Shown here: piece after piece, positions 3,235 through 31,442 of the stretch
How the letters are laid out: every line of letters begins with the position of its first letter
Position numbering within the stretch: position 1 is the first letter of the stretch
Virus record (IMG/VR): IMGVR_UViG_3300012667_000182
Coordinates: 1 to 34,455 of that record
DNA length: 34,455 nucleotides
From: a virus
Taxonomy: Duplodnaviria > Caudoviricetes
Reading direction: 5' to 3' (one strand)
Made by a program: the position numbers and the translations under genes
The notes under the pieces: generated by a model
Databases searched by the model: none
Told to the model about the DNA's origin: nothing
The model's input: the letters and a program-made list of their open reading frames with translations, nothing else

Positions 3235-3378
3235 TTGAACCAAACTGAAGAAGCTATCCTAATAAGCTGGCGTCTTCAGCAATGGTATGAGGGCATGGTT
3301 CTTGACCAGAGAGCCATGCAAGACGTTCAAGACGCTATTGAGATGCTTAAAACACTAGCTAAACAGGTAAACAAATGA
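3235..3378 (+). CDS. Hypothetical 47-aa protein (not in ORF track)
   Basis: TTG after AAGGA; MNQTEEAILISWRLQQWYEG...KQVNK; fills the gap and has an ATGA overlap with the exonuclease gene. Confidence 0.65.
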   Translation: MNQTEEAILISWRLQQWYEGMVLDQRAMQDVQDAIEMLKTLAKQVNK

Positions 3379-4109
3379 TTGTCAAAACAGCAGATTCGGA
3401 GTCAGGACATTGGTACACGCAAACAGGTGAGCCAGCTTATCGGGTTATTGGTAAAAACGGTGTAGAACGCAATACACGATTAACAGACGCAAGGGAAAGG
3501 GGTTTAGTACCGTCAGTAACAACTATTAGCGGATTGCTTGCGAAGCCTGGTCTAAACAATTGGTTGCAGCAAAACGTCTTGTTAGCTGCGTTGACGTTAC
3601 CTAGAATGGAAAGTGAGTCAGAGGAAAACTGGTTGCAACGGGTTATGTCTGATTCCAAGTCTACAGGACGAGACGCAGCAGACAGAGGAACTCGTTTGCA
3701 TGGAATTCTTGAGGATTTTTACAAAGGTAAATTAGTTCAGTTTCCAAACTTTGTTTATAGAGTCAATTCTGCGCTAGAAAGTCATTTTGGCACATCTACA
3801 TGGGAAGCAGAGCGCAGCTTTAGTTGGGGTGGATACGGTGGAAAAGTTGACCTTATAGCTGAAAATATTGTTGTAGACTTTAAAAGCAAGGAGGGGGATT
3901 TAAGCAAGATTACCCCTTACCATGAGCAAATCATGCAGCTTGCAGCGTATAGGATGGGTCTAGGTAAGCCAACAGCAAGATGTGCAAACGTTTACTTTAC
4001 AGAAGCTGGTGACGTTCGACTGATTGAGCATTCAGAGCAAGATTTATATGATGCTTGGGAGTGTTTTCAGTACCTTCTTGCTTTCTACAAAAAGAAGAAC
4101 AACATATAA
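3375..4109 (+). CDS. PD-(D/E)XK (Cas4/RecB-like) exonuclease
   Basis: PSVTTI...KP.L..W, RGT..H, E...GKVDL...VVDFKS and QLAAY motifs. Confidence 0.85.
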   Translation: MIVKTADSESGHWYTQTGEPAYRVIGKNGVERNTRLTDARERGLVPSVTTISGLLAKPGLNNWLQQNVLLAALTLPRMESESEENWLQRVMSDSKSTGRDAADRGTRLHGILEDFYKGKLVQFPNFVYRVNSALESHFGTSTWEAERSFSWGGYGGKVDLIAENIVVDFKSKEGDLSKITPYHEQIMQLAAYRMGLGKPTARCANVYFTEAGDVRLIEHSEQDLYDAWECFQYLLAFYKKKNNI

Positions 4110-4114
4110 TCAAA

Positions 4115-4167
4115 GGGCGGGGAACGCTGGTGTCCCTCCCTCCTTGTCCAGTTAGTACCCGCACCCC
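4115..4167 (+). ncRNA. Candidate small structured RNA with an E-loop motif and an anti-SD loop
   Basis: TATAAT at 4105-4110; stems GCGGG/CCCGC and GCUGG/CCAGU flank GAAC/UAGUA; loop UGUCCCUCCCUCCUUGU. Confidence 0.55.
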
Positions 4168-4208
4168 ACATAAATACAACACTTAGGGTTTGTCCCTATA
4201 AATAACTG

Positions 4209-4257
4209 TTGCGTTAACTGTTTAGCTAGCTTAATATCTAGTCATGGCAACAACGCC
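4209..4257 (+). promoter_or_regulatory. Second early promoter with operator and a 5' GGC...GCC hairpin
   Basis: TTGCGT (4209-4214)-17-TAATAT (4232-4237); TTTAG-CTAG-CTTAA at 4221-4234; GGCAACAACGCC mirrors GGCAATCACGCC after the 1845 promoter. Confidence 0.7.
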
Positions 4258-4269
4258 ATTAACTCAAGG

Positions 4270-18800: not shown

Positions 18801-19721
18801 TCAAAAGCGTTCGTTAAGACCGTCAAATGCTTCAGTCAATAATGAACGTCTGTCTTGCGCTTTGGCTGCCGTGTTCACTCCGGGTGTAGAGCTTTTTACG
18901 CTGACCGCTGCCGCCCGAGCAGCTTTCGCTGCTTTATTAGCTGATTCTCGTTTCGCTGCTTCAGCTTGAGCTTGTGTGCTTTGCTGTAGCTTGCTAGACA
19001 AAGCTTCATCTAGGCGTAATGCTTTGTTATAAGCATCGTCCAAGTTTTGAGCCATTCCAGAGTTTAGGAGTTGGATCATTGTTGGTCGTGCTTCTTCAAA
19101 AAACTCAGCTTTCTGAGAAAAATTACTAATTTCACTCAAAAGAACTTGGTTTTGTGCTGCCTCTTGCTGCTGTTTCCATGACATTACTTCATTACGGACG
19201 CTATAAAGCTCGTTTTGAAGCATTGACACGGTGGGATCAACAGGCTGTTGTTGCAGATTGTTGATGTCCCCTAAATTTACACCATATTGCTGAGAAAGTG
19301 TAGCAAACATCTGCGCTTTCTCGTGTGCTGATCCGTGACGCAAGACATTATCTGCGTTCATTAAAGCTCTAATCGCTTGCGTAGGTTCGATCCCAAGCGA
19401 TTTAATGTTGTTTTGATAGGGTTCAATAGCTTGCTGAATTTGGTCTGCAAACTGTGCTTTAGAAAGCAAAGGTTCTACACCTTTTTTCATTTCTTCTTCA
19501 CGTTGCCAAGCGTACTCTTTTAGCCTTGGGTCAGCGGTTTGCCAAACTTCGTGATAATCCTTTTTCCACGATGCTGGTGGACGCTCCCATACAGCTGGTT
19601 CTGGGGCAGGCTCTGATTGCACAGTTTCAGCGGGTGTTGCCTCTACTTGCTGCTGGACATCGTCAAACTGCTGTGACAGTAATTCTCGACGGTCGTGTCC
19701 AACGTTTTCAGCTTCGCTCAT
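18801..19721 (-). CDS. Capsid scaffolding protein
   Basis: Acidic, helical, Q/A-rich; PPASWK and L.DAY..A motifs; immediately upstream of the major capsid gene. Confidence 0.75.
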   Translation of the reverse strand: MSEAENVGHDRRELLSQQFDDVQQQVEATPAETVQSEPAPEPAVWERPPASWKKDYHEVWQTADPRLKEYAWQREEEMKKGVEPLLSKAQFADQIQQAIEPYQNNIKSLGIEPTQAIRALMNADNVLRHGSAHEKAQMFATLSQQYGVNLGDINNLQQQPVDPTVSMLQNELYSVRNEVMSWKQQQEAAQNQVLLSEISNFSQKAEFFEEARPTMIQLLNSGMAQNLDDAYNKALRLDEALSSKLQQSTQAQAEAAKRESANKAAKAARAAAVSVKSSTPGVNTAAKAQDRRSLLTEAFDGLNERF

Positions 19722-19731
19722 TTAAACTCCC

Positions 19732-20058
19732 TCAAGTATATTTTCTGCGTAATTGCGTCAAAATTTGCTGCGCTTCTTTGTGTGTCATGTTGCCTAATTG
19801 CTGACGTAACACATCCCTGCGGTTTTCCTGAGAAACGGGCGTATATTTCGTATCCATTTTCTCGTTTCCAACCTCAATACAACCGTTAGCAAGTAAATGC
19901 TCACGATGTCTTGATCTGCTTGTAATCATTGAACCGTCAATCATTGACTTGTACGGTTGAATGTCCGGCATTACAAAAGGGCCATAAAGCTTGTCTAAAT
20001 GCTCGTCCGAACCCTTTTCTACTAATTTTCCATCTACATAAACGTAAGTCTTTCTCAT
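19732..20058 (-). CDS. Conserved hypothetical phage protein
   Basis: PDIQPYKSMIDG..I.SRS.HREHL...GC.EVGNE; translationally coupled to the upstream gene. Confidence 0.75.
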   Translation of the reverse strand: MRKTYVYVDGKLVEKGSDEHLDKLYGPFVMPDIQPYKSMIDGSMITSRSRHREHLLANGCIEVGNEKMDTKYTPVSQENRRDVLRQQLGNMTHKEAQQILTQLRRKYT

Positions 20059-31085: not shown

Positions 31086-31442
31086 CTATTTAAGAAACCG
31101 CAGTTTATAGAGCGTAGAGTCAATCAGTTGAGCTATTTCGTCAACAATGTTTTGTAATTGACTATCTTTAGGTAACTCTTTGCGGATTTCTTCAACGAAA
31201 TCACACAGACTTTTCAAATATCGTTGCGGATTTTTTGCTAAATGAAAGTCATCCGGATATATTTTAATCTTGTCGTATGCGCCTTGATACGCTTCTGTAA
31301 ACTGGTCTACTAGGTCTACAATTGCGTCATAGTATTCGCCCAGAGCAACGTGTTCTGCATAGCTTTCAGTTTGAAAGTGCATAAAATGCGTATTTGTTGC
31401 AGAGTGCAGCAGGGTTGATACAAAAGTAGCTGGATAGTCCAT
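31086..31442 (-). CDS. Ferritin/Dps-like four-helix protein (DUF5856-like)
   Basis: H..H.QT.SYAEH.AL..YY......D...E.YQG and LQNI.DEI.......YKL motifs. Confidence 0.75.
   Translation of the reverse strand: MDYPATFVSTLLHSATNTHFMHFQTESYAEHVALGEYYDAIVDLVDQFTEAYQGAYDKIKIYPDDFHLAKNPQRYLKSLCDFVEEIRKELPKDSQLQNIVDEIAQLIDSTLYKLRFLK

Follow-up and report, generated by a model that had tools for sequence, protein, structure and literature searches.

The virus record IMGVR_UViG_3300012667_000182 has 34,455 bases, and the stretch analysed here, called the window below, is the entire record. By its PHROG matches the phage is tailed, its head is Mx8-like, and it has a Cro-like gene and a replication gene; neither an integrase nor CI was seen among the 48 proteins scanned. 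The GC content of this phage and its relatives is about 44-46%, and the part held in common with cultured relatives is the Mx8-like head only (≤53%). The early operon is short and rightward, and it ends with a nuclease gene whose TAA stop (4107-4109) overlaps a predicted -10 hexamer. The hairpin studied here follows at 4117-4162. The coordinates of all these features are given in Table 1.

Table 1. Features at the end of the early operon and downstream of it.
Feature	Positions	Strand	Observations
Nuclease gene	3375..4109	+	Last gene of the early recombination-type operon; PHROG 298 exonuclease, E 3e-12
Predicted -10 element TATAAT	4105..4110	+	Conserved over the stop of the nuclease gene
Closing stem, 5' arm GCGGG	4117..4121	+	Compensatory changes; fixed distance from the -10; predicted RNA 5' end
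Internal loop, GAAC strand (sarcin-ricin/E-loop type)	4122..4125	+	GAA invariant in 37 motif-selected copies
Inner stem, 5' arm GCUGG	4126..4130	+	83.4% of cells paired; two-sided changes at 5/5 pairs
Open pyrimidine loop, 17 nt	4131..4147	+	Boxes kept, linker of 1-7 nt across relatives
Box A, GUCCC	4132-4136	+	Kept in relatives
Box B, CUCCU plus U/A	4140-4145	+	Kept in relatives
Inner stem, 3' arm CCAGU	4148..4152	+	Covariation
Internal loop, UAGUA strand	4153..4157	+	AGUA invariant in 37 motif-selected copies
Closing stem, 3' arm CCCGC	4158..4162	+	Outer helix with 94.1% of cells paired
ACCC tail	4163..4166	+	Predicted 3' end of a stable RNA after trimming; conserved in relatives
Palindrome TAGGG-n5-CCCTA	4185..4199	+	Before the second promoter; differs among relatives and lies outside the RNA
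Separate predicted downstream promoter TTGCGT-17-TAATAT	4209..4237	+	Operator-like palindrome at 4221-4234

Several observations concern the surroundings of the hairpin. A palindrome of the type TTAAGATAGCTTAA is repeated at 217-230, 1823-1870 and 4221-4234; it overlaps the promoter that follows the hairpin as well as the divergent promoters next to the Cro-like gene (1600-1821), and is likely an operator. Short hairpins stand directly after both predicted early promoters, ATGGC-AACAAC-GCCAT at 4245-4260, which is kept in most relatives, and AGGC-AATCAC-GCCT at 1880-1893; they are possible 5' stabilisers. The TAGGG-CCCTA palindrome was not enriched in six bacterial genomes. The downstream promoter is separable from the hairpin, as one relative (L306) has a comparable promoter region but no hairpin. 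Elsewhere, a Dps/ferritin-like gene (31086-31442, minus strand; PHROG 858, PF19174) was present in 13/13 genomes compared, and strong mosaicism was seen in G006, G007, G010, G011 and G012, in which virion modules are exchanged and the late genes may have the same orientation as the early operon or the opposite one.

Predicted fold of the hairpin

An earlier note on this DNA had described a TATAAT followed within a few nucleotides by a hairpin with these arms and this loop; all the elements are present, and the predicted fold is the one described. The anti-Shine-Dalgarno (anti-SD) string that it had seen exposed, CCUCCUU, occupies 4139-4145 inside the hairpin loop, and the boxes around it are conserved across relatives. 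Considered alone, the hairpin was not more stable than shuffled sequences (z -0.57 for 4100-4200 and z -0.98 for 4117-4185), and therefore the case for it rests on its relatives. No U-tract follows the stem in the window and no intrinsic terminator was called. ARAGORN found no tRNA or tmRNA at the locus, and Rfam gave no match in the window at E≤5, nor in 12 related loci at E≤1.

The internal loop is of 4x5 size and has AGUA opposite GAA, flanked by Watson-Crick pairs that covary in an alignment selected on the motif itself. By our own count, its size fits the 7x6 class of PMC13085918 if the flanking pairs are included. Such a pairing of AGUA with GAA strands is the ordinary signature of sarcin-ricin motifs and is described from many non-ribosomal RNAs (PMC13085918), so the motif by itself does not imply rRNA mimicry. 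The poor fold of the minus strand and the frequent G-U pairs among the copies point to an RNA of the plus strand; the note had assigned the same strand, and the conservation agrees with it. The minus strand was also considered as an RBS or a CsrA site and discarded, given the poor fold, the absence of a start codon after it, and UAGGAG variants that lose the CsrA consensus.

Conservation of the hairpin and of its two ends

We collected 79 nuclease loci, of which 61 were close relatives (67-95% identity); one of these ends before the stop and was left out, so that 60 had downstream sequence. The loop core was found downstream of the nuclease in 60/60 of them and was absent behind 14 distant loci (45-47%), while 4 further loci of the 79 had no stop inside the locus. 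The E-loop pattern itself was matched in 49/79 loci. In 11/60 relatives the loop boxes sit on stems without the E-loop: L016, L017 and L030 have longer stems with two 2x2 internal loops, and the L035 type (8 loci) has a 7-bp stem and then a terminator-like hairpin with a U-run, the boxes being kept in both designs. This terminator variant (L035, L297) has the full layout of a small gene, with -10, hairpin and terminator. Stem length is not conserved, and there is no GNRA cap beside the E-loop motif.

In some relatives the place of the nuclease is taken by an unrelated PF10108 exonuclease (pairwise E 0.066). Among its loci (44, of which 2 truncated ones were left out), the hairpin was found in 15/15 at ≥83% identity and in 0/27 at ≤69%. 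Three loci have an inserted endonuclease-like gene between the nuclease and the hairpin, with the TATAAT and the hairpin behind the insert, a position that may come partly from duplicated target sequence. Two observations were made at single loci: at L007:2721-2787 an int-alpA RNA (Rfam RF02996), which with 37.8 bits exceeds the gathering score, leads the HNH-like gene that an insertion has placed between nuclease and hairpin, and in L058 the nuclease frame is broken by a premature stop or frameshift, with -10 and hairpin intact.

A strict hairpin pattern matched 80 stretches in IMG/VR and also two GenBank phage records. With a covariance model, a single strong copy was detected in 12/13 near-complete genomes, and the thirteenth has the E-loop-free form; each locus has one motif hairpin and each genome one copy. 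Covariation was analysed in 37 distinct E-loop copies, and two-sided changes were found at 11/11 pairs. Paired cells amounted to 89.3%, against a shuffled mean of 80.0% (0/500 shuffles as high) and 19-53% in slid controls; since these copies are mutually related and were picked by the GAA/AGUA motif, the shuffle count is no probability and the invariance of GAA/AGUA is built in. RNAalifold, unaided, proposed 8 of the same pairs. In the loop, box A reads GUCCC (GUUC in one variant) and box B reads CUCCU followed by U or A. From the comparison of these copies, the hairpin is a genuine family of RNA type and its fold is under selection. The conservation expected by the earlier note is thus borne out, both for the hairpin as a whole and for the E-loop-type stem with its covarying flanks.

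Some matches were examined and set aside. A scan of bacterial genomes gave 6 hairpin matches that could have been prophage copies; they scored 15.9-24.1 bits against 49.7-73.2 for true copies, had no phage-type -10 or flank, and were read as chance. L089, L099 and similar matches belong to a different element before another gene, and a tRNA origin of the AGGAGGGGAC matches was found in 0/10 loci.

Regarding the 5' end, the nuclease gene ends NTA-TAA-T in 50/50 distinct close homologues and only 26% of Ile/Leu codons end in A, which points to a -10 signature beyond coding need. TATAAT over the stop codon was seen in 3/466 other genes. In 31/34 distinct contexts a hexamer of the form TANNNT precedes the stem, its last base being 5-6 nt away; the spacing first noticed in the window is kept. 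Behind the PF10108 exonuclease the hexamer shifts frame (TAAGAT, TAAACT, TAAATT, TAAAAT); its position 6 is T in all four variants, compared with 47/215 in other TAA-ending genes. The -35 region is poor, with a best match of ≤3/6 in 45/46 contexts. Transcription from this hexamer would start at the first base of the stem, near 4116-4117. Sequencing run X1 gave 3 short contigs on the nuclease gene and 0 on the hairpin, which is uninformative either way.

At the 3' end, the stem is followed by A in 59/60, C in 55/60, C in 54/60 and a pyrimidine in 58/60 of the distinct combinations of core plus tail. The same ACC tail was observed on 2 SRP RNAs from betaproteobacterial genomes (2/5 loci shown by pattern). 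RNase T is reported to halt at CC in a duplex overhang and to leave ACCC on 4.5S RNA (PMC3439924), and a conserved SRP-like tail could account for the missing U-tract. By this analogy, the RNA would be a stable one whose ends are paired and whose 3' overhang is trimmed to ACC(C). Its 3' end would be produced as in SRP RNA, or set by the terminator in the one variant, where the ACC tail is absent. Most copies are without the U-tail typical of Hfq-dependent sRNAs. The statement of the note that this is not an ordinary terminator holds, with a separate terminator only in the L035/L297 variant; the conserved ACC tail and the two-box structure of the loop go beyond that first reading.

Possible pairing partners in phage and host

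The scaffold gene had been pointed out in the note as a likely partner. Its RBS, GAGGGAG, lies at 19733-19727 on the minus strand before the ATG at 19721, and it is indeed an exact 7-nt complement of the loop; such a match is not rare, as 14 other 7-nt matches and one of 9 nt were found elsewhere in the window. GAGGGAG occurs in 6/10 genomes with a scaffold gene; CUCCCUC is present in the loop of 5 of these 6. On the scaffold site, pairing averages -12.5 kcal/mol with the own loop and -10.7 with swapped loops. None of the other gene clusters, 26 in all, shows so large a gap in this comparison, whose gene calls came from a simple script of our own, with one start miscalled. The match includes the variable linker of the loop and tracks the clade. 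At least 8 contigs carry the RNA element together with a scaffold RBS reading A(3-4)GGGG, as does G008; these contigs were selected by that very pattern, so that its 47/48 is not a frequency. In G006 and G010, both 100% complete, the RNA element is present and the scaffold gene is absent, another virion module standing instead. The comparison lends no support to the scaffold RBS as a conserved target. The stretch before it, at 19733-19752 (minus strand) and in L412-L459, contains TACGC-m-G-w-AAAT-w-TAC, conserved across head types; the scaffold SD itself varies, being GAGGGAG or AAAGGGGT.

When complements of both boxes were sought in the phage genomes, a single stray match each was obtained in 2/8, and no target with both boxes. 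AGGAG is present in 23/478 conserved phage RBSs (4.8%) and in 107/1549 (6.9%) in G104, the stand-in host genome described below. Phage RBSs thus barely avoid AGGAG, and a blanket effect on the host only is not indicated. AGGTG is found in 29/478 phage RBSs against 28/1549 in G104.

Several host clues were searched for. The operator pattern was found in 0/401 genomes, early-region DNA gave 2/121 genomes with weak matches to the replication gene only, the terminase gave 4/401 at ≤52% identity, and ERF gave 0/150 scored. We consequently refer to G104 as a stand-in and not as an assigned host; it is a 1.71-Mb genome of 46.5% GC from a Burkholderiales sample, chosen because its GC content is near that of the phages. 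We take it to be Polynucleobacter-like. It encodes Hfq, which the phage does not. Box B complements AGGAG and lies inside the 16S 3' tail of G104. No two-box target was found in G104, and no gene was consistently first across 26 loops.

The gene ftsZ was named in advance as a test target, prompted by DicF. Its RBS reads CCTAGGAGGGTAT-ATG in 21/29 loci of the genus of G104. With the L018-type loop, the longest contiguous match (9 nt) in the 1740 genes of this stand-in genome belongs to ftsZ alone, and the same loop matches 21/29 ftsZ sites of the genus at 9 nt. Loops ending in UUGU match the ftsZ site of G014 at 9-10 nt; two other ftsZ sites of the G014 family are without the 9-mer. The sites split into CUAGGAG and CAAGGAG, which resembles the U/A split of the loop. 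By duplex energy, with 26 loops, ftsZ ranks 10-560 of 1740 G104 genes and is never first. At most ftsZ sites of the genus, the match of the two commonest loops is limited to 5-6 nt; the loop of the window reaches 7 nt, with 24 genes as good or better. Among 129 AGGAG genes, 21 reach 9 nt with some loop, and box A pairs on ftsZ only via G-U and a bulge.

When 301 genomes were scanned for both boxes, 44 of them yielded matches, 57 in total, and the recurrent match at a start site was rpsC, in high-GC genomes. Both complements are present at the rpsC start (AGGAG...ATG GGA CA) of 5 high-GC genomes that were verified and of G128; the AGGAG complement is missing from the rpsC site in 30/30 genomes of the genus of G104. 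We regard rpsC as a weak lead.

Proposed function and comparison with known RNAs

Considering that the loop boxes also occur on stems without the E-loop, the loop is likely the working part of the hairpin. The explanation that we prefer, with somewhat more confidence than doubt, is that this conserved phage hairpin is produced as a stable RNA some 50 nt long, which base-pairs with RBS regions of AGGAG type, probably those of host mRNAs, and lowers their translation. The sarcin-ricin-type loop would stiffen the stem, box B would act as the seed on the SD, and box A may lengthen the duplex in the direction of the start codon; a set of mRNAs, most likely of the host, would in this way be translated less. 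In support of this explanation, gene replacement and insertions leave the unit in its place after the last early gene, and the loop boxes are retained in three stem designs. Against it count the poor -35, the failure to find a two-box target in the phage genomes or in G104, the lack of a G104 gene ranked first consistently across the loops, the scant avoidance of AGGAG by phage genes, and the missing U-tail of most copies.

A special case of this explanation would be a DicF-like inhibitor of cell division, with the loop on the ftsZ RBS of the host and U/A variants tracking the ftsZ of the hosts. DicF is a precedent for an anti-ftsZ phage RNA (PMC5069750, PMC12197685), and the 9-nt match of the L018-type loop, the G014 site and the parallel split of sites and loops are in its favour. 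Considering the energy ranks, the short matches of the commonest loops, the number of AGGAG genes that reach 9 nt, the poor pairing of box A and the G014 relatives without the 9-mer, we find it unlikely. We are similarly doubtful of its more elaborate form, in which a minimal RNA with housekeeping-like maturation (paired ends, ACC, no Hfq tail) would block division via the ftsZ RBS, a DicF-like function reached independently. The RNA could instead act as a timing switch on the mRNAs of the phage itself, either scaffold or other late ones, or early ones through the ACCY tail on AGGU. The frequency of GAGGGAG, the advantage of own over swapped loops and the abundance of AGGTG in phage RBSs speak for such a role; the dependence of the scaffold match on linker and clade, the persistence of the RNA beside A(3-4)GGGG scaffolds or another virion module, and the scarcity of two-box complements make it rather improbable.

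A different kind of alternative dispenses with pairing in trans or with a promoter of its own: the hairpin would be a cis element at the 3' end of the early mRNA (a stabiliser or processing signal), or a 3'-UTR RNA cut near the stop codon. It always comes after the final early gene, the -35 match is weak, and the AU-rich sequence at the nuclease stop may be a site for RNase E. DicF and PreS, moreover, arise from operon transcripts (PMC5069750, bioRxiv 2024.10.31.621285). Against this, a stabiliser has no need of two conserved loop boxes, and the T at position 6 of the hexamer is kept in four variants behind an unrelated gene; we give this alternative a small chance. The least probable explanation, to which we attach very little weight, is a protein decoy or a tRNA or rRNA mimic, directed to an rRNA-cleaving defence nuclease, an anti-SD-binding protein, or CCA-adding or aminoacylating enzymes. 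It would bring together the sarcin-ricin-type motif, the anti-SD string and the acceptor-like end (stem, A, CC). However, the E-loop is missing from the relatives mentioned above, which weakens the rRNA decoy suggested by the note, the ACC tail is lost in the terminator variant, no GNRA cap accompanies the motif, stem length varies, and ARAGORN finds nothing.

By comparison with known systems, the preferred RBS-pairing RNA resembles the Cuckoo, ar14 and RSs0680 sRNAs of Alphaproteobacteria, which likewise have an anti-SD motif in a hairpin loop on variable stems and are proposed to occlude RBSs (PMC4615179). Cuckoo and ar14 are bacterial and are described with 2-4 hairpins, each with CCUCCUCCC (PMC4615179), whereas the phage element is a single hairpin whose loop reads UGUCCCUCCCUCCUUGU, with boxes GUCCC and CUCCU-W and without a match to CCUCCUCCC; unlike them, it has a sarcin-ricin-type internal loop and an ACC tail, and matches nothing in Rfam. 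DicF, from the lambdoid Qin prophage, is also of about 50 nt, comes from a lambdoid phage operon and pairs with RBSs including that of ftsZ (PMC5069750). It is reported as cut by RNase E, with a Rho-independent terminator and a need for Hfq (PMC5069750), in contrast with the phage hairpin, which mostly has no U-tail and has no Rfam match, and for which ftsZ is a lead at most. PreS/LPR1 of phage lambda is an sRNA of the early left operon that acts on host mRNAs in the lytic cycle, and the placement in the operon is similar here; PreS is described as ending in a poly-U terminator, binding Hfq and activating dnaN (bioRxiv 2024.10.31.621285). In SRP (4.5S) RNA the 5' end pairs with the 3' end and ACC(C) comes after the duplex (PMC3439924), as in the phage hairpin. 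Only the end is alike; no SRP motif and no RF00169 match were found in the hairpin.

In the literature searched we found no description of this hairpin family. It may sit among the 8,495 unnamed DNA-virus candidates of PMC10690425, whose table and text supplements, the part covered by our search, contained no motif strings, and three contig ids were absent from file 4. The hairpin family and the architecture of its ends are, as far as comparative sequence analysis goes, well supported.

The number of characterised trans-acting phage sRNAs is small, and those considered here come from enterobacterial phages. The family offers a test case of 50 nt with natural mutants: three stem designs, two routes to the 3' end and about 26 versions of the loop. 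It raises the question of whether phages can damp host translation with RNA alone, and that of a regulatory RNA using SRP-like end maturation instead of a terminator and an Hfq tail. Should the RNA act on ftsZ or some other core gene, its loop would indicate which host it comes from; in the case of an RNA that blocks ftsZ, the loop variants would track host ftsZ alleles and could be read as a host-range marker for uncultured phages.
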